A DNA stretch of 57,763 nucleotides, from IMG/VR virus record IMGVR_UViG_3300045988_077974; one strand, 5' to 3'. The notes under the pieces are model-generated. The model worked only from the letters and a program-made list of their open reading frames with translations, searched no databases and was not told where the DNA came from. Positions 4,961-57,763 of the stretch are shown one piece after another. Numbering within the stretch: the first letter of the stretch is position 1; each line of letters starts with the position of its first letter. Origin of the DNA: a virus. Made by a program: the position numbers and the translations under genes.

Positions 4961-6067
4961 TTAATTTATTTGAAGTAAACTAATCGTAAAGCTACCACTT
5001 TGACTGTTAATCCATCCGCTTCCGCTTACCGTTAATGTATATCCGCTAACTGAATTGCTTGCAAAATTTTGATCTAATGCGCGACATAGATTTCCGTCAT
5101 AACCATATAAGATTCCTCTTACAATTCCAGTCGTGGGACTTTGTGGGTTATATTTACAACTGCCATAAAAAACAGCTATCCAAAATTTATTTTTCGGAAG
5201 AGAAACCGATGCACTTCCATTATTACTTTCTTTCCTTTCTATCGTTTTTGCGTATCCCCAATCATTTACTATTGAATCTGTTACCTTATTATTTTCAAAT
5301 TTTTCATACAAAACTTTATTTTGAACTGGGTTTTCGCTAGTGCTTGAAAGCTCAGTATCTATAGTTATATTTGCAATTTTTTTGGCTTGTTCTGAATAAT
5401 ACTTTGCGTTGTCTGTATCTTCCCCATCTCTGATACCGCTCTTCCCAACTGCGTAAGATTGTGATAATTTAGCGTCTGTTAATGCATTGCTTTCGCTTGT
5501 AGATGCATTTTCAGCACTGCTACTTGCGGATTGTGCTTGTGCAGTTATATTAGATAAATAATTTTGTTCTAAATATTCATCTGTAATACTTCCTTTTAAA
5601 ATATCAGCATTTACAGCAAAACTTCCATCTGCATTTTCGATTTTTTCAAAACGAATCCTTTGACTATTATTAAAATTGTAAGTAGGAATCATGCTTCCAA
5701 TATTAGCTTGCCATTCGGTTCCGTCTTCCGTTGTCATTACAAGCACTCCGTTGCTATTCAAGGAAAATGATACTGGTATTTTTTCGATGTTAAAATCAAT
5801 GCTAAAACTTGTTCCGTCAAAAAACTTAAAAGTCAAAATCCCTGTTTCAGCATCCCATGTAGGCGTTTCTGAAAGTAATTTATTTGCCGAAGATTTGTCA
5901 AGCTTTTCAATGCTAAATCCATTGTATACGACATCCATAATTTCACACAATTTTTTTATTGTATTGTCCATTTTGTTTAAATTGTTTTTATCAATAGGCG
6001 TCTTAAGGCTTTCTGATCTGTTTTCCCATCCAACGGGATAATAAATAATTTTTTCGTAATTATCCAT
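4961..6067 (-). CDS. Tail fibre / receptor-binding protein candidate
   Basis: Position after the tail tip gene. Ala/Ser/Gln-rich coiled segment AQAQSASSSAENASTSESNALTDAKLSQSYA, typical of phage fibres. Confidence 0.6.
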   Translation of the reverse strand: MDNYEKIIYYPVGWENRSESLKTPIDKNNLNKMDNTIKKLCEIMDVVYNGFSIEKLDKSSANKLLSETPTWDAETGILTFKFFDGTSFSIDFNIEKIPVSFSLNSNGVLVMTTEDGTEWQANIGSMIPTYNFNNSQRIRFEKIENADGSFAVNADILKGSITDEYLEQNYLSNITAQAQSASSSAENASTSESNALTDAKLSQSYAVGKSGIRDGEDTDNAKYYSEQAKKIANITIDTELSSTSENPVQNKVLYEKFENNKVTDSIVNDWGYAKTIERKESNNGSASVSLPKNKFWIAVFYGSCKYNPQSPTTGIVRGILYGYDGNLCRALDQNFASNSVSGYTLTVSGSGWINSQSGSFTISLLQIN

Positions 6068-28712: not shown

Positions 28713-28872
28713 ATTGTTTACCTCCTACGAAACATAAACAGCACCACGCTTTATGTGCTAAACTCTACGATTAATAAAAAACAACAAACAGGCAGTCGTA
28801 GGTCTGCTTTTCGGTCTGCATCACCTAGTTTGTTGCATTTATTTACTGATAATATTCAAATATCAGCAAAAC

Positions 28873-29346: not shown

Positions 29347-29418
29347 CTAGGGTACCCGGATTCGAACCGGGAAGTCTGGGAACCAAAATCCCATGCCTTA
29401 CCATTTGGCGATACCCCA
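29347..29418 (-). tRNA. tRNA-Gln (anticodon UUG)
   Basis: Minus-strand sequence TGGGGTATCGCCAAATGGTAAGGCATGGGATTTTGGTTCCCAGACTTCCCGGTTCGAATCCGGGTACCCTA-G. Full cloverleaf drawn by hand: U1:A72, G73, anticodon loop UUUUGGU, T-loop TTCGAAT. No encoded CCA. Confidence 0.88.
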
Positions 29419-32976: not shown

Positions 32977-33065
32977 TACCCGATAGCCGAAACGCTCAAT
33001 TCCGGAGCGTCCACCGCGGGATGGTCTCCCGGTGCTGATGATGGCAGACCAGAAAGGGAAATATT

Positions 33066-33515
33066 ATGAATACAATTAAATTACAAGGAATTTACAGCAG
33101 ACAGAAAGCAATACCGGCGGCAGATCTTAAGCCGGGAATGGTTACAACTTGGAATTATGGTTATACTGAGACAGTTAAAAGCGTAGAGCCTACCAAGAGC
33201 GGTAAAAGCGTTAAATGCGTTATCATCTCAAACGAAAGCGGAACTGAATGCGTACGAACAATGAGAGCTGATAGGCTTGTAGGAGTTAAAGAGGAAGAAC
33301 CAAAAACCCCTATTGACAAAGCACTAGAAAATAGGACTAAAACATACAGCGGGATTTATAGCGATGTCGGCACAGCCTTAGAAGCTTTCAGCACTTCGGA
33401 GCTTGCGGAATATTATATACAGCGTTTCGGCGATAGTGCATTACGATATTTTCTTGAGCAGGGAATAATTTCCGCAGAAATCAACGCAGAGAAAGAGAAA
33501 AGAGAAATTTGTTAA
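33066..33515 (+). CDS. Hypothetical protein
   Basis: ORF track. Plus-strand island. Confidence 0.6.
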   Translation: MNTIKLQGIYSRQKAIPAADLKPGMVTTWNYGYTETVKSVEPTKSGKSVKCVIISNESGTECVRTMRADRLVGVKEEEPKTPIDKALENRTKTYSGIYSDVGTALEAFSTSELAEYYIQRFGDSALRYFLEQGIISAEINAEKEKREIC

Positions 33516-38583: not shown

Positions 38584-39708
38584 TCAAACAATGTTAATTG
38601 CATCCCCTACCTTGAAAAGTTCCTCTATACCATAATCATCTCCCGGTGTGACATACAGATCAAGTGTTGTTGATATTTTTTGATGCCCCATAATTCTTTG
38701 CAGTGCTTTCGGGTTCATCCCAGCTTGTATGCACCGTGTGGCGAAAGTGTGTCTTAATAGATGCATTGATATGTTTCGTAGTCCGTTTGTCTTACAAACA
38801 TAAGCTATTCTTGTCGATAAACAAAATCTAGGTATACAGCTTCCGTCTGAATTTTTAAAAACCAAATCACCATATACTATGTTTGTAGCATATCCTTTTT
38901 GAGATTTTTTTACAATCCGTAGTATCCTTAACGCTTCCGTTGTCAATGGTATATTTCTTTTTCCGGCTTTCGTTTTTGTTTCGCCTAAAAACCAGCTATT
39001 ATCATTTTTATCTTGAATCAAGCTTCTATTTACCGACAAAGTATTATTTTCATAGTCTATATCGGACCACTTCATGCCAAGAACCTCTCCAACTCTCAAT
39101 CCTGTTTGCAGTACGAATCTGAATATATATTCGTATTTTCCTCCGGTTATTGCTTCTACAAATATTTTTTGCTCATTTTTGCTCATGGCAATCCGTTCAC
39201 GTTCTTCTTTTCCTGTTAATTTAACAGTTTTTCCGCACGGATTTTCTTTTAAAACCTTATTTTGCACTGCATAATCAAACATATTTCCCATTATAGCCTT
39301 TACGATATCTTCTGTTTTATTGCTCATTCCTGCATCTGACATATCATTAAGAACTCTTTGGCACGTTAATGGTATTATTTTTTTAATTTCAACATCTCCT
39401 ATTTTTGGCTTTATATGTTTTTCGTAATTAAAAGAATAAATATATAATGTCCCCTGCTTAACAGTCCTTCTTTTCATATCAATCCATATTTCATACCATG
39501 AATTAACCGTCATATTGTCTGGTTGCTCAATATCGCTATGTTCATTATGGTATTTACTATCAGCAACCCATTTCTGGCATTCTCGAACATTACGAAACAA
39601 TTTCTGCCTACGTTTACCAAATCTATCGGTATATCTGCCAACATAGTAACCGTCCTTTCTTTGAGATATACCCTCTCCAAGCTCCTTGCCTTTCAGACTT
39701 TTTCCCAT
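38584..39708 (-). CDS. int: Tyrosine integrase
   Basis: C-terminal catalytic region ...GLRVGEVLGMKW...HLLRHTFATRCIQAGMNPKALQRIMGHQKISTTLDLYV (R..HxxR..Y). Confidence 0.92.
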   Translation of the reverse strand: MGKSLKGKELGEGISQRKDGYYVGRYTDRFGKRRQKLFRNVRECQKWVADSKYHNEHSDIEQPDNMTVNSWYEIWIDMKRRTVKQGTLYIYSFNYEKHIKPKIGDVEIKKIIPLTCQRVLNDMSDAGMSNKTEDIVKAIMGNMFDYAVQNKVLKENPCGKTVKLTGKEERERIAMSKNEQKIFVEAITGGKYEYIFRFVLQTGLRVGEVLGMKWSDIDYENNTLSVNRSLIQDKNDNSWFLGETKTKAGKRNIPLTTEALRILRIVKKSQKGYATNIVYGDLVFKNSDGSCIPRFCLSTRIAYVCKTNGLRNISMHLLRHTFATRCIQAGMNPKALQRIMGHQKISTTLDLYVTPGDDYGIEELFKVGDAINIV

Positions 39709-48992: not shown

Positions 48993-49730
48993 CTAAAACG
49001 GACACTCATTAGGATTTTTCGAATCCCAACTTTTCCCTGCTACTGCGACATCTACATTCGCCACAGGAGCGACTTTTTTCATCTTCTTGATAAAACTATC
49101 ACTATCGGAATTTTCACTCGATAAATGGCACATTATGACGTTCTGCAGGCGGTCTGAATAATTCTCCTTGACAAAATCACAAGCCGTGTCGATGGATAAA
49201 TGACCTCTGAAAACGTGATTGTTTTTAGCCGGATTGCTCCAGTCAACCATATCTTTGTCGTAATTGACACCAAGAAGAATATGGTCAATATCCTTAAATC
49301 TCCATTTGATAACTTCGCAATCGGTTATGTAAAGCATTCTCCCCATTTCCTTGTGAGTAATCAGAAAGCCGAATATCGGGCAAGGCTCGCCGTTTGCGTT
49401 TGTATGTGTCCAGTTTCCATCCATTGTTGTTAAATCAAATATTCTTACAGTAAAATAAGAATTTGCTAGAAACTGGTTCATAAGCAAGGTTTCATATGGC
49501 TTACATATTGGAATACCCATAGCTTCAAAATCTTTTACCGACTTGCTATGGTCAAGGTGCCGATGGGTGCATAACACACCCACAACATCTTTAATGTTCC
49601 AGTCTAATCCTTTTTTAATCTCCTTAATCGGTATTCCACAATCAAGGATAAGTGTTTCTCCGCTGTCGGAAGTTAGCGTATAGCAATTTCCGGCTGACGA
49701 TGAACCTAAGCATTTTAATCTCATACTCAC
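48993..49730 (-). CDS. Metallo-beta-lactamase-fold hydrolase (probable nuclease of the recombination module)
   Basis: LCTHRHLDHSKS (HxHxDH) motif, and the C-terminal MCHLS motif. Confidence 0.8.
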   Translation of the reverse strand: MSMRLKCLGSSSAGNCYTLTSDSGETLILDCGIPIKEIKKGLDWNIKDVVGVLCTHRHLDHSKSVKDFEAMGIPICKPYETLLMNQFLANSYFTVRIFDLTTMDGNWTHTNANGEPCPIFGFLITHKEMGRMLYITDCEVIKWRFKDIDHILLGVNYDKDMVDWSNPAKNNHVFRGHLSIDTACDFVKENYSDRLQNVIMCHLSSENSDSDSFIKKMKKVAPVANVDVAVAGKSWDSKNPNECPF

Positions 49731-50066: not shown

Positions 50067-50957
50067 CTACGCCTCCTCCGCTTTCATAAATTCCGGCAAA
50101 TCATCGTTTTCCTCCGCTGTCGCATCGTCAACATCGGTCGCAACGCTGTCGATAACGTCTGATTCGTCAAAATCAACGCTGTTTGCGTTCTGCTCAATAT
50201 CGTACTCGACATCTTTCTCGATCATTTCCTGCTCACTGACAACATTCAAATCGTCAATGTCGATCTCTGTGCCGGTATGCGAATTGTTGATATATTTCAG
50301 AAGCCGGTTTTTCACCGTTTTCATTGCCATCTGATCCGGAAACTTCTGGTGAGTTCCATTTCCATTCTCTTTGTATCCGTACCCCTGCTGCCAAGACTGC
50401 TTAATCTGATCCATCGTCATTACTTCCGAAATAATTTCCCCGTCATCCATAACAGCCACGGCATAAGCACCAATAATGTTATCATTGCTCATATTTTCAA
50501 AGGACTGCTCGTGAGAATCAATCACCGTCTTTGCGTTTTCCTTATGAAATTTGAAGATATCGCCTTTATAAATCACAGAAGCATTGATATCTTTCAGCCC
50601 AAAACGTCTCGCAATGCAGGTGTTTCCGTAAACGGAACGCTGACATTGTAATTTACCGCCATATGCGACTGGATAGCACTGCTTCTTTCTCATAGAAAGA
50701 CCGTCAGTGACCATTTCAATAAGGGCGTTTTCAATACTTGCTCTGCTGCAACTTTGCAAAACAGGCTTTTTATTTCTGTCAGTAGTCTCCTGTAAAATAA
50801 GCATTGCCGACATAAACTCATTGGTATAGTTGTAATCTTTCGGAAACGTCAAACCGAATTGCTCTTTCTGCTTGATCTTTACGACCATTCCCTCTGTGAA
50901 ATCTTTTGCAACCAGTTCTTTGCTTTCTGCTTCTTTAATTTCATTCTCCATAGTCAT
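50067..50957 (-). CDS. recT: RecT-family single-strand annealing protein
   Basis: MRKKQCYPVAYGGKLQCQRSVYG...IIGAYAVAVMDDGE...MTMDQIKQSW is a typical RecT core, with an acidic tail. Confidence 0.85.
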   Translation of the reverse strand: MTMENEIKEAESKELVAKDFTEGMVVKIKQKEQFGLTFPKDYNYTNEFMSAMLILQETTDRNKKPVLQSCSRASIENALIEMVTDGLSMRKKQCYPVAYGGKLQCQRSVYGNTCIARRFGLKDINASVIYKGDIFKFHKENAKTVIDSHEQSFENMSNDNIIGAYAVAVMDDGEIISEVMTMDQIKQSWQQGYGYKENGNGTHQKFPDQMAMKTVKNRLLKYINNSHTGTEIDIDDLNVVSEQEMIEKDVEYDIEQNANSVDFDESDVIDSVATDVDDATAEENDDLPEFMKAEEA

Positions 50958-51982
50958 TCCTCACTTTCAAATAATTCTTTTACATATAAATCCATTGAAT
51001 AACAAAGTTTTACGCAATTTCCGTGTAATGCATGATTTTTCCAGGAATTGTACTTCTCATAAAACTTCTTTTCTATCATTCTTCCAGATTTCACAAGCTT
51101 TACCCATGTTCTAATCTTCTTGCGGATTTTACGTTTATTCGATCCTGTAAGTTTTCTTATGTATTTTCCGTCTTTCGTAATGTAATGATGAAAACCGGTA
51201 AACAGTATCCCGTTTTTAAACGGCAATATTTGCGTTTTCCCATTCAGCGACAATCTGAGACTGGCAACAAATTCCCTTATGCAGTCAAGGCACCACATCA
51301 AATAACCTTTATCTTGGTGGATTAAGTAGAAATCGTCCATATATCGTCCGTATAGTTTTATACCTAATTCTCCGGTAATAAAACGATCTAACCCGTTAAG
51401 CGTCAACAAAGCATAAACCTGTGCAACTTGGTTTCCAAGCGGAAGCCCCAAACCATCTGTGCTGTCTATAAACAAATGATTTAACCACTTCACATATTCG
51501 TCTGTAAAATGATAGTCTACAATGTCTTTCAAAACCTCATGATCTATCTGGTAGAAAAACTTCGTAATATCACATTTAAGAATCCAACCATTAAGACCAT
51601 GCTCTCTGTAAAACTCAAGCATTTGATCTCTTAGACAATCCATTCCGAAATGAGTTCCTTTTCCTTTCTGCCCTGCATAATTGGTTTTGATAAACTCGCT
51701 TTCCAATCTCGGATGCAATATGTTGTCGCACAGACAATGTTGAACAACTTTATCCTTAAAAGAACACGATTTAATCACTCTCTCCTTAGGTTCATAGACC
51801 TTAAATTCATTGTACGGATTCATCCGGTATGTCTGATTTTCAAGCTGTTCTTTTAAAAGATGCAATCCCTCAAGGCTCATTGTCTGAAATTTTGCACTGC
51901 TGCCATTGAATTTTTTACCATATTTAGCTTTCTTATAAGCCTTATACAGATTTTCATAATCACAAATAATATCTTTATCCAT
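50954..51982 (-). CDS. DGR-type reverse transcriptase
   Basis: 342 aa. RT motifs ...ILKCDITKFFYQIDH..., GLPLGNQVAQVYA (resembles the DGR [IL]GxxxSQ motif) and GRYMDDFYLI. Sits directly 3' of a TR whose copies differ at adenines. Confidence 0.9.
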   Translation of the reverse strand: MDKDIICDYENLYKAYKKAKYGKKFNGSSAKFQTMSLEGLHLLKEQLENQTYRMNPYNEFKVYEPKERVIKSCSFKDKVVQHCLCDNILHPRLESEFIKTNYAGQKGKGTHFGMDCLRDQMLEFYREHGLNGWILKCDITKFFYQIDHEVLKDIVDYHFTDEYVKWLNHLFIDSTDGLGLPLGNQVAQVYALLTLNGLDRFITGELGIKLYGRYMDDFYLIHQDKGYLMWCLDCIREFVASLRLSLNGKTQILPFKNGILFTGFHHYITKDGKYIRKLTGSNKRKIRKKIRTWVKLVKSGRMIEKKFYEKYNSWKNHALHGNCVKLCYSMDLYVKELFESEE

Positions 51983-52003
51983 AGTAAAAATTCCTTTGTA
52001 TTT

Positions 52004-52021
52004 ATCCTTTTAGGAAAGGAT
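52004..52021 (-). other. 7-bp hairpin in the TR-RT spacer
   Basis: ATCCTTT-TAGG-AAAGGAT on the plus strand, between the TR and the RT start codon. Confidence 0.6.
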
Positions 52022-52081
52022 GCGCACTTTTTTGTATCTTTTTCCGATTTCGGCTTACTGCCTACTCTAACTGTCTGTGTA

Positions 52082-52157
52082 ATACAGAATGGGCGAACAC
52101 CGTTGTTGTTATTGTAGTTCCTGTTGTTGATATTGCCGGACGAAGCAACAACGGTTT
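52082..52157 (-). repeat. DGR template repeat (TR)
   Basis: About 76 nt. The sense strand is AAC/AAT-rich (AAT ATC AAC AAC AGG AAC TAC AAT AAC AAC AAC) and non-coding, between avd and the RT. It aligns to VR1 and VR2 with mismatches almost only at TR adenines. Confidence 0.9.
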
Positions 52158-52180
52158 ATACAGTGCGCAACCTAATAAAT

Positions 52181-52552
52181 TTATCTTTCTTTATCCTTAG
52201 TTCTCCAAGCAATCGCCATATGCTTAATGTCAGAAACCATCTTCGACCAATATTCCATGCTTTTTGCATTTATGATGTTTAGTTTCATTGATAATTCAAT
52301 GTAAAACAAAAGTTCGTCACAATGCGTTATTGCTTTGGTTTGAAGCTCCGACCGCTCCCTGCGATACAACTTCAAATCCGTTCGATTCGCTTCATACAGA
52401 TATTCATAGATTTCAAGTGCTTTATTTTGCATTTTATCCACAAGAGAAAATCTGTATTTCTTCGGATATCTATTGCAGTTTGAAGTTATCCGCAGCGTAT
52501 GTTCGGCAAGGTCTTTTGCTTTCAAGATTACCTTTAATTCCGTTCCAGCCAT
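52181..52552 (-). CDS. avd: Avd-like accessory variability determinant (four-helix-bundle, 23S rRNA IVS protein family)
   Basis: 123 aa, basic and helical. KAKDLAEHTLRITSN...YPKKYRFSLVDKMQNKALEIYEYLYEAN fits the Avd/IVS-protein pattern. Canonical position between target and TR. Confidence 0.8.
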   Translation of the reverse strand: MAGTELKVILKAKDLAEHTLRITSNCNRYPKKYRFSLVDKMQNKALEIYEYLYEANRTDLKLYRRERSELQTKAITHCDELLFYIELSMKLNIINAKSMEYWSKMVSDIKHMAIAWRTKDKER

Positions 52553-52556
52553 TTAA

Positions 52557-53165
52557 TTACTCCTCTGATTCAAAGATTGAAGAAGAAAAGATACAAAACG
52601 GGCGAACACCGTAGTCGCAATTGTAGTTCCTGATGATGAAATCGCCGGACGAAGAAACAACGGTAACCGAATATTCATAATCGTTGCAAGGTGTACTCCA
52701 AGGAGTAATAAGCCACCACCATTTTTTCTCGTTCGGAATAAGACTTCGATATTTCCTGTATTCATCTACAGTAAGAAGAGAAACGGAATCTTCGCACTTT
52801 TCATATTCCGTCTGACCGTCCAGAGATAACAGATCTCTTTCAAACTTAACGATATTTTCTTCTCCAACTTCATCGGATATCTTTTTGAGAAAATCTCCAT
52901 TCAAATATTCTCTTAAACCGCTCGATTTCCAGTCGTTAGAAGAATCGTCAAACTTCATATCTTCTTCCAAAATTTCACAAAGGCAAGAATAACCATTGTC
53001 TGTAATGTCAATAATCTTCCAGTCAAGACCTGCGATTTTAAAAGTGTCTCCAATTTTAAGGCTGGAAGGGATTTTAGAAACACTTTTCTCCGCTTTCAAA
53101 ATAGCAACATCATTCCTAAGTTCGTTGATCTGATCCTGCAAAATTTTCATTGTTAAATTAGCCAT
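52557..53165 (-). CDS. DGR target protein 1 (VR1 at the C-terminus)
   Basis: C-terminus WWWLITPWSTPCNDYEYSVTVVSSSGDFIIRNYNCDYGVRPFCIF. The overall layout (GD.F..G...W.V......LREYLN..F....vsLLTVDEY...WWW...) resembles DUF6273/CLec-like DGR targets. Alternative start at 53171. Confidence 0.85.
   Translation of the reverse strand: MANLTMKILQDQINELRNDVAILKAEKSVSKIPSSLKIGDTFKIAGLDWKIIDITDNGYSCLCEILEEDMKFDDSSNDWKSSGLREYLNGDFLKKISDEVGEENIVKFERDLLSLDGQTEYEKCEDSVSLLTVDEYRKYRSLIPNEKKWWWLITPWSTPCNDYEYSVTVVSSSGDFIIRNYNCDYGVRPFCIFSSSIFESEE
52591..52666 (-). repeat. DGR variable repeat VR1
   Basis: Aligned by hand to the TR. 9 in-frame substitutions at TR adenines and 2 at non-adenines. Confidence 0.9.
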
Positions 53166-53167
53166 AA

Positions 53168-53776
53168 TCATTCTCCTTTCGATACAAAGATATTAGATTT
53201 CAAGATACAAAATGGGCGAACACCGTTGCAGTTACCGTAGCCCCCGCAGCTGAAATTGCCGGACGAAGCAACAACGGCGATTGAATACTCCCATCCTCTT
53301 TCAGCTGTAGACCACGATGTGCAAGTCCACCACCAATCATTTAACTCGTTATTCACAAGAAGATCATTGTACTTTCTTGCTTCATCAAATGTAATAGGTC
53401 TGACCTTGCATTTAAAACGAGAAAATTCTTCCTGCATATCAACCGATGTCAAGTCGACAGAACATTCAACGATGTTTTCTTCACCAACCTCCGATTCAAT
53501 AATTGGCTGAATATCTTCCTCGATAACCTTTCTAAGATTAGATTTTCTGTAGTCTCTCGTATCATCATCAAATACGATATTTTTTGCCATAAATCCTTTT
53601 GAAATTACTGCCGTTGTTTCTGCATATTCATTCTGATCAAGCACAATAAAATCATGATCTCCAATTTTGAATGTATTGCCCGGATGCAATTCGCAAAGTT
53701 TGACTTTGCTTTTTTTCTCCTCTTCTTCAAGCCTTTTTACCAGTTCCCTTGCCATTTCCAATGTTTTACTATTCAT
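53168..53776 (-). CDS. DGR target protein 2 (VR2 at the C-terminus), paralog of target 1
   Basis: C-terminus WWWTCTSWSTAERGWEYSIAVVASSGNFSCGGYGNCNGVRPFCIL. Same architecture as target 1. RBS GGAGGG. Confidence 0.85.
   Translation of the reverse strand: MNSKTLEMARELVKRLEEEEKKSKVKLCELHPGNTFKIGDHDFIVLDQNEYAETTAVISKGFMAKNIVFDDDTRDYRKSNLRKVIEEDIQPIIESEVGEENIVECSVDLTSVDMQEEFSRFKCKVRPITFDEARKYNDLLVNNELNDWWWTCTSWSTAERGWEYSIAVVASSGNFSCGGYGNCNGVRPFCILKSNIFVSKGE
53205..53280 (-). repeat. DGR variable repeat VR2
   Basis: Aligned by hand to the TR. 12 substitutions at TR adenines and 1 at a non-adenine. Confidence 0.9.
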
Positions 53777-53779
53777 TTT

Positions 53780-55696
53780 TTATCCCTCCATAATTTCCAT
53801 ATCTTTGTTATCAACAATCAGAAGAATCTTCTGACTTTCGATCATATCAATTACTTTCGCCCGGTTCGCTTCATCCAAGCTCTCAACATCATCAATCCAA
53901 ATAGGGCAACGGATTCCGCTCATTTTCTGAATCGAATTACAAATGTCAATCCTGCCAATGATGCGGTTCCCCTTATTGCTCATAGTGGTTAGAATTGACT
54001 TTCCATCCACCATAGGGATGCAATCTGATTTGTAGCCGCCGGATTTTCCGATCTCAAACAATTTCCATTTGACAATTCCGAAATTAGCATTTACGGCATC
54101 AGCTAATTTTGAGTTTTTCACTTTCTCCAAATCCTCAATCAAATGAAGAACCCTCTCCGCATCTGCCTGCTTCTGTGATTTTTCACGCTGCTCTTTTCGC
54201 AGATGCTCTAATCTATCCTCGCAGTCGGAAGTATCTGACTGCGTCAGAAGCTTTTCCCATTCTGCCAATTCTGACCGTATTTCCGTCTCTTCTCCGGCTA
54301 GCATAGTTTTCAAAGCCGAAATGTCATTGTATTTCTCAAGGAATTTCTCCTTTTCGGAAATCTCACTTTCCAACTTCTTGTAATCATCGGTGCTGGTAAC
54401 GTCTCTTCTTTCTTCGGACAGATTGTTTTCAAGCTGCTTAATCTCTTCTGCCAAAATTTTCTTATCAGCTTCGTTATTTTTGTTTAGTTCCTCTAATTTA
54501 GATATTTCTTTGTTGTTTTCCTTGATTTCTTTCTTAATTTTCAAACCGTCACTCTCGATTTTTTTGATCCGATCATTCTTTGACTTCTCAAAATCAGATT
54601 TCAGAGTTTCAATTTCTTCATCCGGAAACTCCCGGTGACACGTCGGACATACAGTCGATTTCTCGTCGAATTGCTCTGATTTCACAGACTGCCAAACATT
54701 AGAAAGCCTTTCTCTCTCCTCGTTCAGCTTAATGTTTTCTTTTTTGTAACCAGAAAGCTCAAAAGTATTTTTCTGTATTTTTACATTAAGCTTTGTAAAA
54801 AGCTCTTCTTTTCTTCCAATCTGTTTTTTAATGTCACTCAATTCTTTTTCCGTTTTCTCATTCGCCTCACGAACCATATCATTAAGCCGAAATTTCATAT
54901 CAAGGATATCGTTCGTCTCCTTATCGTAAGAATCCATAAGATTCTTGTTAGAAGCCTGCTTGTCTTTGTTTTCTTTCAGACGTTCCAGTAAAAAGTTTCT
55001 TTGCAACTCTAACGCCGATACGTCCGTTTCCTGCTTCTGCTTGATCTCAAGCTCTTTCTCTGCGATGCGACCGGAATATGTTGATAATTCCTTTTTCATA
55101 TCGCTGACAATAGATTTGTTCATTGCCGTTATCTCTTCTACCGTATAATCAGCCAACAGCGGCAAAAGGTCTTTCAAATCTTCGTTTCCTGCGGCGATAT
55201 CATAATCGCTAATACTATCCGTATGAGCGAAAAGGTATTTCCTCATTTCGGTTGGCTTCTGTGCGGTAAAAGCGTTGATGTTGCAACACATCTTGACAAT
55301 GTCCATATCAATGCAGAGGTAACCCTTAAAGTCCTTGGCAGTTTTTAGAACGTCGTTAATAAAATACCTGTTATCGTCCTTGTAACTGCTGCCGTCTTTA
55401 CTATATGTCCGCTTCTGAACCTTTTTCATTGTGACTATTTTGCCATCAACACAAAACCTGGCAGTAACGCTAACATCGTCATCAACAGGCACCCCGTTTT
55501 CTTCCCGTCTTACAACCGGCTTCGGTGTCAAATCGTAGTCACAATCAAACAAAAGCCACATATAAGCATTCGCAATAGTGCTTTTTCCAACTCCGTTGCG
55601 ACCGATGATTCTGGTCAAATCGTTGAAACCGACCTTTTCGTAGCCATAAGCCATGAAGTTTGTCATTTCAATGTCAATGATTTTGATTTCTTTCAT
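53780..55696 (-). CDS. SMC/Rad50/SbcC-like AAA ATPase with a long coiled-coil and a CxxC hook
   Basis: Walker A IGRNGVGKSTI, about 350 aa of coiled coil containing CPTC, and a C-terminal ...IWIDDVESLD (Walker B/D-loop-like) motif. Confidence 0.8.
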   Translation of the reverse strand: MKEIKIIDIEMTNFMAYGYEKVGFNDLTRIIGRNGVGKSTIANAYMWLLFDCDYDLTPKPVVRREENGVPVDDDVSVTARFCVDGKIVTMKKVQKRTYSKDGSSYKDDNRYFINDVLKTAKDFKGYLCIDMDIVKMCCNINAFTAQKPTEMRKYLFAHTDSISDYDIAAGNEDLKDLLPLLADYTVEEITAMNKSIVSDMKKELSTYSGRIAEKELEIKQKQETDVSALELQRNFLLERLKENKDKQASNKNLMDSYDKETNDILDMKFRLNDMVREANEKTEKELSDIKKQIGRKEELFTKLNVKIQKNTFELSGYKKENIKLNEERERLSNVWQSVKSEQFDEKSTVCPTCHREFPDEEIETLKSDFEKSKNDRIKKIESDGLKIKKEIKENNKEISKLEELNKNNEADKKILAEEIKQLENNLSEERRDVTSTDDYKKLESEISEKEKFLEKYNDISALKTMLAGEETEIRSELAEWEKLLTQSDTSDCEDRLEHLRKEQREKSQKQADAERVLHLIEDLEKVKNSKLADAVNANFGIVKWKLFEIGKSGGYKSDCIPMVDGKSILTTMSNKGNRIIGRIDICNSIQKMSGIRCPIWIDDVESLDEANRAKVIDMIESQKILLIVDNKDMEIMEG

Positions 55697-57148: not shown

Positions 57149-57763
57149 CTATTCAAGCTCCACAAATTCTCCGTTTTTTAATCGGTAAAACGTATCTTCT
57201 TTAATTTTTTCTCCGTCAACACATTCTGTTTTGACGCATACCGGAATCAAATAAGAATTATCGTTTTCATTTTTTCTTTCCCATTCAGCCAATGTAATCC
57301 AACTGCCAATTTTTGCTTTTGCAACAGAGTCCATTCCAGCTGCCATTATTACGGAGTGTTTGCCTTCCGATTCAATCTGTGCGTAATCTCCAGAGCTACC
57401 AATCTGCGCGTAATCTCCAGAGCTACCAATCTGTGCGTAATCTCCAGAGCTACCAATCTGTGCGGAATCTCCAGAGCTACCAATCTTTGCGGAATATCCA
57501 GAGCTACCAATCTGTGCGTAATCTCCAGAGCTACCAATCTGTGCGGAATCTCCAGAGCTACCAATCTGCGCGGAATATCCAGAGCTACCAATCTGTGCGT
57601 AATATCCAGAGCTACCAATCTTTGCGGAATCTCCAGAGCTACCAATCTGCGCGGAATATCCAGAGCTACCAATCTGTGCGGAATATCCAGAGCTACCAAT
57701 CTGTGCGTAATCTCCAGAGCTACCAATCTGTGCGTAATCTCCAGAGCTACCAATCTGTGCGGA
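57149..57763 (-). CDS. Repeat protein, C-terminal part (nonapeptide repeats plus 65-aa tail); 5' end leaves the window
   Basis: The frame of track ORF 57149..57346 stays open upstream through every repeat. Hand check gives ...SAQIGSSGDYAQIGSSGDYAQIESEGKHSVIMAAGMDSV... The track ORF 57349..57753 (HRLVALEIT) is a different, probably non-coding frame. Confidence 0.7.
   Translation of the reverse strand, partial: SAQIGSSGDYAQIGSSGDYAQIGSSGYSAQIGSSGYSAQIGSSGDSAKIGSSGYYAQIGSSGYSAQIGSSGDSAQIGSSGDYAQIGSSGYSAKIGSSGDSAQIGSSGDYAQIGSSGDYAQIGSSGDYAQIESEGKHSVIMAAGMDSVAKAKIGSWITLAEWERKNENDNSYLIPVCVKTECVDGEKIKEDTFYRLKNGEFVELE
57373..57763. repeat. 27-bp tandem repeat, about 14 units
   Basis: Units start at 57383. 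Variants are gta/gga, atc/ata and ctgtgc/ctgcgc/ctttgc. Continues at 1..108. Confidence 0.95.

Follow-up and report, generated by a model that had tools for sequence, protein, structure and literature searches.

The locus described here is a diversity-generating retroelement (DGR) located at positions 50954-53776 of the IMG/VR virus record IMGVR_UViG_3300045988_077974. The window, meaning the entire stretch of 57,763 nucleotides (nt) that was analyzed, is a whole phage genome of ~57.8 kb in circularly permuted form. Two target genes, the gene for the accessory variability determinant (avd), a template repeat (TR), and a reverse transcriptase (RT) gene are found on the minus strand, and each target gene carries a variable repeat (VR). 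The components are as follows, with protein lengths in amino acids (aa).

53168..53776, minus strand: target gene 2, 202 aa, N-terminal helix and DUF6273-like C-type-lectin-fold domain (phrog_9958, 5e-31)
53278-53205, minus strand: VR2, 74 nt, 82% identical to the TR
52557..53165, minus strand: target gene 1, 202 aa, DUF6273 C-type-lectin-fold protein (phrog_9958, 1e-47)
52664-52591, minus strand: VR1, 74 nt, 85% identical to the TR
52181-52552, minus strand: avd, 123 aa (phrog_3206, "Avd protein of DGR", 5.8e-23)
52155-52082, minus strand: TR, non-coding, 74 nt, placed by computed alignment
50954-51982, minus strand: DGR reverse transcriptase, 342 aa (Pfam RVT_1; phrog_1423, 6.6e-99; PDB 8ub7, 1.4e-38)

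Repeats, reverse transcriptase, and Avd

A first-pass annotation made from the sequence had proposed a complete DGR with RT, Avd, a TR, and two VRs in the order target-avd-TR-RT. Each of these defining components was tested and found, and the order is target 2, target 1, avd, TR, RT. The positions and strand of the repeats were recovered as proposed, the earlier VR ranges being merely 2 bases longer. The TR had been called non-coding. It is intergenic between avd and the RT gene, no minus-strand open reading frame (ORF) crosses it, and an in-frame TAA is located directly 5' of it. Measured back from the RT start codon, the TR extends from 173 to 99 nt upstream. VR1 and VR2 lie near the 3' ends of target genes 1 and 2, respectively. 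The 74-nt VRs of this window stop 34-37 nt short of the target stop codon, and in related loci the VR windows set by the family scan end ~30 nt before it. No further repeat copies were found on either strand of the whole window when the A positions were left free.

The mismatches between the repeats were counted over a 72-nt core of the computed alignment. VR1 differs from the TR at 11 positions, 9 of which are TR adenines, and VR2 differs at 13 positions, 12 of which are TR adenines; the counts made earlier by hand are identical. The one-sided Fisher tests for adenine enrichment, which used a 76-nt comparison window holding 23 TR adenines (the core holds 21), gave p = 1.9e-4 for VR1 and p = 5.7e-7 for VR2. 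The computed alignment, which had been suggested as a check on the hand alignment, is strongly enriched for mismatches at adenines. Twenty of the 21 core adenines occupy codon position 1 or 2 (AAC, AAT, ATC, AGG, TAC, ACC). No stop codon is reachable by adenine substitution in the TR, and ~4.9e11 protein variants are computed for each target.

The RT gene is a 342-aa ORF with the motifs GRYMDDF and LPLGNQVAQ, in agreement with its earlier description. The best solved relative is bRT of phage BPP-1 (8ub7), with 136 bits and an E value of 1.4e-38, whereas group II intron and retron RTs score ~33 bits or less (E ~1e-7). The assignment to the DGR type is made by these scores rather than by a tree. 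The equivalents of bRT residues D138, the YMDD aspartates, F66, R74, G182, and Q187 are conserved in the residue alignment; the catalytic and template-/dNTP-contact residues of bRT are named in bioRxiv 10.1101/2023.10.23.563531. The [ILV]GxxxSQ motif of DGR RTs is LGNQVAQ here and aligns with IGSLTSQ of bRT. The 123-aa product of the neighboring gene, earlier described as Avd-like, is recognized as Avd by phrog_3206, and no match to it was obtained among PDB sequences. A search of the RT with PADLOC returned generic RT matches only.

Transfer from TR to VR and the DGR RNA

Relatives of the RT were found in IMG/VR (556) and in GTDB species genomes (409), and the related genomes used below were drawn from these two sources; nucleotide searches of INPHARED returned one short unannotated fragment. 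Most IMG/VR contigs with a related RT are 50-60 kb in length. The GTDB matches are prophages of Lachnospiraceae (Agathobacter, Roseburia, and others), Oscillospiraceae, Acutalibacteraceae, and other Clostridia, and the host range of the element is therefore taken from these taxa. The cassette of two targets and two VRs with avd, TR, and RT recurs in most of 160 IMG/VR and GTDB loci, with VR offsets from the TR of ~510 and 1050-1150 nt.

Polymorphism within the cassette was examined in a gap-free alignment of the window with four IMG/VR genomes whose RTs are 93-96% identical. The four relatives were picked by RT similarity and not by adenine bias. The pooled adenine-bias counts over the 160 loci were left unused, since the scan had picked the repeat pairs by the same criterion. 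The polymorphic columns in the five genomes are as follows.

VR columns opposite TR adenines: 39/42 polymorphic
Other VR columns: 6/102 polymorphic
TR columns: 2/72 polymorphic
Remaining cassette columns: 316/2607 polymorphic

Comparison of the adenine columns with the other VR columns gives a Fisher p value of 3e-25. The variation in related genomes is thus located where the first-pass annotation had predicted it, at the VR positions opposite TR adenines. Of the six VR changes outside the adenine columns, three mirror a point change in the TR of the same genome. The TR change C20-to-T in two of the relatives (L003 and L004) is present in both VRs of each, and the TR change C2-to-A in a third (L002) is present in its VR2 and absent from its VR1. 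The latter pattern may be explained either by independent updating of the two targets or by a variable 5' extent of the transfer. Because point changes of the TR recur in the VRs of the same genome, information flows from TR to VR. Comparison of these sequences, rather than experiment, thereby shows a directional, adenine-specific transfer.

One related locus (L076, IMGVR_UViG_3300023505_000013) has a different organization at ~5890-6000, where avd is gone and target-gene sequence runs straight into the TR. This locus looks like a decayed DGR that arose by a recombination deletion between VR1 and TR.

For the RNA, the 228-nt segments that precede the RT start codon in 43 distinct loci were aligned, the alignment was folded, and its pairs were counted. 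The elements obtained are listed below.

52173-52162, minus strand: 5' arm of a duplex, AGGTTGCGCACT, six nt 5' of the TR, identified by covariation
52028-52017, minus strand: 3' arm of the duplex, AGTGCGCATCCT, ~55 nt 3' of the TR, identified by covariation
52015-52005, minus strand: hairpin TCC-TAAAA-GGA beside the duplex, 2/3 pairs compensatory
52062-52052, minus strand: spacer hairpin GGC-AGTAA-GCC, invariant in the 43 loci and with no covariation signal
52088-52074, minus strand: TR-specific hairpin TCTGT-ATTAC-ACAGA, present in the single and consensus folds, 99.5% paired and nearly invariant

The TR and the initial portion of the spacer are enclosed by the duplex, which has 12 base pairs (bp). 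Compensatory double changes appear in 9 of its 12 pairs, and 96.7% of the alignment cells are paired. None of 500 shuffles reached the observed value, and sliding of the 3' partner by 1-3 columns reduced pairing to 21-45%. An A-rich tract extends from the hairpin at 52015-52005 up to the RT start codon. The "cPRT Stop" element, described for BPP-1 and predicted in 207 other DGRs, consists of a distal duplex with a mean length of 13 bp, in many cases accompanied by a stem-loop beside it and adenosines after that (Handa et al., bioRxiv 10.1101/2023.10.23.563531). At the level of sequence and predicted folding, the layout of 12-bp duplex, stem-loop, and A tract matches this element.

The TCTGT/ACAGA hairpin starts exactly where the transfer from TR to VR stops, the last variable adenine being at TR index 65. 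At index 68 a C is present in 79/79 TRs and a T in 124/146 VRs, and the 3' ends of TR and VR share an A-free, GC-rich tract, GGTGTTCGCCC. Judged from these sequences, an asymmetry of the initiation of mutagenic homing (IMH/IMH*) type is present at the 3' end of VR and TR. By analogy with BPP-1's template:primer duplex of TR and Sp, the TCTGT/ACAGA hairpin may position the primer. An assignment of the exact priming nucleotide from this hairpin was dropped; in many VRs the departure from the TR is seen as early as index 66.

A mechanism may be proposed from these elements. A transcript comprising the 3' end of avd, the TR, and the ~100-nt spacer would fold such that the 12-bp duplex ties the 5' flank of the TR to the spacer. 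The RT and Avd would bind this folded RNA, and the TR would be reverse-transcribed from near its 3' end with misincorporation opposite adenines. The mutagenized cDNA would then replace the homologous ~66 nt in VR1 and VR2. The expected outcome is a rewritten C-terminal beta-hairpin, with its binding loops, in both lectin-fold targets, with stop codons never created. Homology with BPP-1 suggests cis-priming, and Avd would act, and the cDNA would be integrated, as in that system.

Target proteins and genomic setting

The two targets are tandem paralogues that are 39% identical and belong to the same PHROG. Target 1 passes the gathering threshold of Pfam DUF6273 (PF19789), with 41.9 bits against 23.5; target 2, with 18.2 bits, is under the gathering score. 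The start of target 1 was set at 53165, although the ORF is readable from 53171, on the basis of 202-aa homologues and a ribosome-binding site. No signal peptide is visible in either target. An AlphaFold run with 25 sequences, mostly >86% identical, gave a predicted local distance difference test (pLDDT) score of 53.7 and was discarded; homologues from a profile search were used instead. The resulting AF2 model has a pLDDT of 92.6 and places the VR in a beta-hairpin at residues ~175-187, near the C-terminus. The top Foldseek match of the target model is the DUF6273 domain of 9qa6 (E 3.2e-7, probability 1.0; profile E 1.2e-3). Further Foldseek matches are Lcl, snake-venom C-type lectins, and CD94/NKG2A, and the matches in BFVD are DUF6273 phage proteins.

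Target 1 has 4400 homologues, of which the closest 120 are 86-94% identical and fall into clusters that are mostly single-member. In an alignment of 23 close homologues with the two targets of the window, variation is concentrated in the block G[x4 R x Y x4]GVRPFC. From the modeled fold and by analogy with the literature, the targets are probably ligand- or receptor-binding proteins. They could be virion-associated binders encoded outside the structural module, or non-virion binders. As small lectin-fold proteins lacking a signal peptide, they may instead be early, non-virion binding proteins and not receptor-binding proteins.

Three tandem targets or two target-1-type copies are present in two related loci (L041, 3627-5391; L025, 64-1280). 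The target array therefore expands and contracts. Fused double-DUF6273 proteins of 380-389 aa (P0121 and P0122) are found among the homologues.

The cassette is part of a block of genes in the order ATPase, target 2, target 1, avd, TR, RT, RecT, small protein, and MBL-fold hydrolase. The flanking genes are listed below.

53780..55696, minus strand: SbcC/Rad50-like structural maintenance of chromosomes (SMC) ATPase, directly upstream of target 2 (phrog_77, 1.2e-50; Pfam AAA_15, AAA_23, Rad50 zinc hook)
50067..50957, minus strand: RecT single-strand annealing protein (Pfam RecT, 8e-37; phrog_148)
48993..49730, minus strand: metallo-beta-lactamase-fold (MBL) hydrolase of the recombination block (phrog_392, 1.7e-58)

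The junction sequence shows the start of RecT overlapping with, or abutting, the stop codon of the RT gene. A RecT-family gene directly follows the RT in 65 of the 74 IMG/VR relatives with enough downstream DNA. Among loci L001-L080, the annealing-protein gene after the RT is of at least four RecT-family types that are mutually undetectable at a tblastn E value of 1e-5, and in one related locus a PD-(D/E)XK nuclease and a putative annealing protein follow the RT. The cassette is kept better than its flanks in 80 related loci, with identities of 77-96% for the RT, 76-100% for Avd, and 30-47% for the ATPase. A search for DGR-less relatives by means of the flanking ATPase returned 6 relatives, all with the cassette.

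In 80 more distant prophage loci (52-82% RT identity) the neighbors are single-stranded DNA-binding protein (SSB), Rep, DNA methylases, ParB, helix-turn-helix (HTH) regulators, DUF1064, and ERCC4, and Sak or Rad52 lies beside the DGR in few of them. No tail, baseplate, or lysis families appear among the 25 commonest neighbor families in either of two Pfam scans of these loci, and large-terminase domains appear once among the neighbors. A scan of 47.5-57.8 kb of the window for promoters and terminators gave counts at the level of shuffled sequence.

The window also encodes terminase, portal, major head protein, tape measure, and integrase, all distant from the DGR. The tyrosine integrase (38584-39708, minus strand; phrog_1, 1e-73) occupies a central position in the permuted genome and marks the phage as temperate. 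Integrated relatives are found in large Lachnospiraceae contigs, for example one of 170 kb (L084). The host belongs to the gut Clostridia, probably to the Lachnospiraceae, and the temperate phage is siphovirus-like. A 27-nt tandem repeat is present at both ends of the window, at 3-109 (4 copies) and 57373-57763 (14.5 copies). Because the same array is found at both ends, the genome is circular or terminally redundant and was cut inside the array. The 134-aa "ORF" at 57349-57753, with HRLVALEIT repeats, is a mere reading of this array.

Other features were identified across the genome. The ATPase at 53780-55696 also matches the Lamassu LmuB model in PADLOC (5.9e-25), which probably reflects general SMC similarity and not a defense role. 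A type II hammerhead ribozyme match is found at 32985-33053 on the plus strand (64.2 bits against an Rfam gathering score of 37, E 4.7e-11), on the strand opposite most genes and just upstream of a plus-strand ORF at 33066-33515. An int-alpA small RNA match at 28768-28835 (minus strand; 47.1 bits against 35.8) and a tRNA-Gln(ttg) at 29347-29418 (minus strand) adjoin the gene for a DnaD-like replication initiator.

Assessment of the element and comparison with known DGRs

The locus is almost certainly a genuine, complete, phage-encoded DGR that has been recently active in its lineage. Several observations weigh against this reading or parts of it. In VR1 the G at TR index 9 is replaced by T, a change seen in 0/4 close relatives, and a further non-adenine difference, C68-to-T at the 3' boundary, is fixed between the TR and both VRs. 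The Avd matches to NCBIfam DivGenRetAVD (9e-13, 48.4 bits) and Pfam bAvd (9e-5, 23.3 bits) are both below the curated cut-offs. No hairpin or cruciform was found 3' of the VRs (z = -0.59 and +1.23 against shuffles) in 68-nt DNA segments that comprised the last ~20 nt of the VR and ~46 nt downstream; 222 such segments from relatives have a mean z of +0.12, against -0.51 for random controls, and their stems are no longer. A VR-downstream hairpin is not universal among DGRs. The targets sit among early recombination genes, ~40 kb from the tail genes, a placement that is atypical of phage receptor-binding proteins. Recent activity is read from genome comparison, at the level of the lineage and not from variants of this genome itself.

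The differences between the repeats could also be historical, left by a decayed DGR whose components persist after diversification ended. The VR1 difference at index 9 and the relative that lost avd, with its target gene fused to the TR, would fit such a fossil. All ORFs of the cassette are intact, however, and the catalytic residues are conserved. Genomes with RTs as close as 93-96% have completely different VRs at the adenine columns, recent TR point changes have been copied into VRs, and the closest 120 of the 4400 target-1 homologues form mostly singleton clusters, with the variation in the 23 that were aligned concentrated in the VR block. A fossil is accordingly very improbable. That the RT belongs instead to a retron, a group II intron, or a defense system, with the repeats as ordinary paralogous gene ends, has almost no probability. 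The top NCBIfam match of the RT is group_II_RT_mat (95 bits against a cut-off of 300), and there are weak matches to Drt3a (41 against 200) and retron_St85 (38 against 235). Against these stand the 136 bits for bRT compared with 33 bits for group II and retron RTs, the third, non-coding and A-rich repeat copy between avd and RT, and the significant adenine-specific pattern of mismatches. No maturase or endonuclease domains were found, and an Rfam search of 50954-53776 detected no intron or retron RNA. The adenine bias, the RT scores, and the five-genome column test rule these candidates out.

A more specific proposal is that the DGR is coupled to the phage recombination module, such that RecT, possibly assisted by the SbcC-like ATPase and the MBL nuclease, would anneal mutagenized cDNA to the VRs at replication forks. 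Such coupling would be the natural equivalent of the engineered DGRec system. The contiguity of the RT and RecT genes, the RecT-family gene after the RT in 65 of 74 relatives with at least four highly divergent types, and the conservation of the cassette far above its flanks are in its favor, as is the missing VR-downstream hairpin. The natural installation of DGR cDNA in its target is described in the literature as not understood, and two engineered systems use CspRecT for this step (bioRxiv 10.1101/2025.03.24.644984; 10.64898/2026.07.21.739853); RecT suffices in E. coli. The GC skew is uniform and the coding strand is G-rich, which fits the VR sense strand as the lagging-strand template, and a lagging-strand preference was found in a recent study. 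However, in the 80 more distant loci of the same clade other early genes are nearest and an annealing protein is adjacent in few, and 9 of the 74 close relatives have no adjacent annealing protein. Conserved gene order with swapping of alleles is also ordinary phage mosaicism, and the DGR of the closest named relatives (nd12 and FP_Brigit) is in a tail/lysis module. In engineered systems, integration by RecT alone also mutates the TR, whereas only 2/72 TR columns are polymorphic here. Since the TR is near-invariant and a TR/VR difference is fixed, a discriminating homing step exists. Coupling of this kind is thus unlikely. It is similarly doubtful that the DGR is an integral part of an early recombination operon whose own RecT helps to install the cDNA in place of the absent VR-downstream hairpin.

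The element, read as a complete and recently active DGR, was compared with the BPP-1 prototype (mtd-avd-TR-brt). The two share the order target-avd-TR-RT, and the RT is homologous to bRT (31.9% identity, E 1.4e-38), the residues for catalysis and template contact being kept. In both, transfer from TR to VR is adenine-specific, the VR is located C-terminally in a protein of C-type-lectin fold, and a TR/VR difference of IMH*/IMH type is fixed at the 3' boundary. BPP-1 has one 381-aa Mtd with beta-prism and beta-sandwich domains, whereas two tandem 202-aa targets are present here. The GC-rich hairpin/cruciform downstream of the VR in BPP-1 (PMC3240598) has no counterpart, the spacer is ~100 nt rather than 140 nt, and the RT motif is LGxxxAQ rather than IGxxxSQ. 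The DGR of BPP-1 adjoins tail-fiber genes, whereas the one described here lies within a recombination module.

The closest named RTs are those of the gut phages nd12 and nd4 (49.7% and 40.7% identity; Baykov et al. 2023, PMC10743442), in which a single TR likewise serves two DUF6273 targets (PMC10743442). Their tgt2 is a small, single, helix-flanked C-lectin domain with the VR beta-hairpin at its C-terminus, and the model of the window target is alike. The nd12 and nd4 targets are dissimilar, one being an Ig-domain "tentaclin" with an N-terminal VR and the other a small protein, whereas those of the window are 39%-identical tandem paralogues with C-terminal VRs; the nd12/nd4 cassette is located among structural and lysis genes rather than in an early recombination block. 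The Faecalibacterium phages Lelie/Toutatis, CP11, Roos, and Pioen (PMC11792537; bioRxiv 10.1101/2024.10.15.618418) are also temperate gut phages of Clostridia, with RTs ~40% identical and DUF6273 targets whose VR is at the C-terminal end, some with two VRs. They have a large and a small target, the second target of Toutatisvirus being 17 kb away, whereas adjacent small paralogues are present here; their targets are annotated as Hoc-like or tail-associated, and those of the window are without Ig domains.

DGRec and related engineered systems combine a DGR RT, Avd, and template RNA with RecT, and the RT and RecT genes of the window directly adjoin each other. An IMH is dispensable in the engineered systems, which also mutate their own TR, whereas the natural element keeps the TR constant and retains the boundary difference. 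The best solved structural match of the target model, 9qa6, is the N-terminal DUF6273 domain of the Thomasclavelia ramosa IgA peptidase (PMC12402451). The motif WW[W]L.TP...GVRP of this domain aligns with the targets, at 17% identity. The peptidase is a secreted, cell-wall-anchored bacterial protease, and DGR diversification is not described for it in the parts of PMC12402451 consulted.

DGRs of gut phages have been catalogued in tens of thousands (PMC8241571), and those with DUF6273 targets, including two-target elements, were already known (PMC10743442, PMC11792537, bioRxiv 10.1101/2024.10.15.618418). The element is an ordinary DGR of this known class from gut Clostridia phages. Its unusual points are the placement in a recombination/replication module beside RecT and the absence of a VR-downstream hairpin. 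Its value is that of a very clean natural case that is also abundant, since hundreds of near-identical genomes carry independent VRs. Comparison within the family proves the TR-to-VR transfer, and covariation supports the RNA elements known from BPP-1. The recurrent placement among replication and recombination genes is noteworthy, because engineered systems solve cDNA entry with RecT. If the coupling to RecT were true, it would be the first natural link of a DGR to a defined cDNA-integration factor. The role of RecT is a lead only, and the family provides a natural system in which RecT-assisted cDNA entry may be examined.

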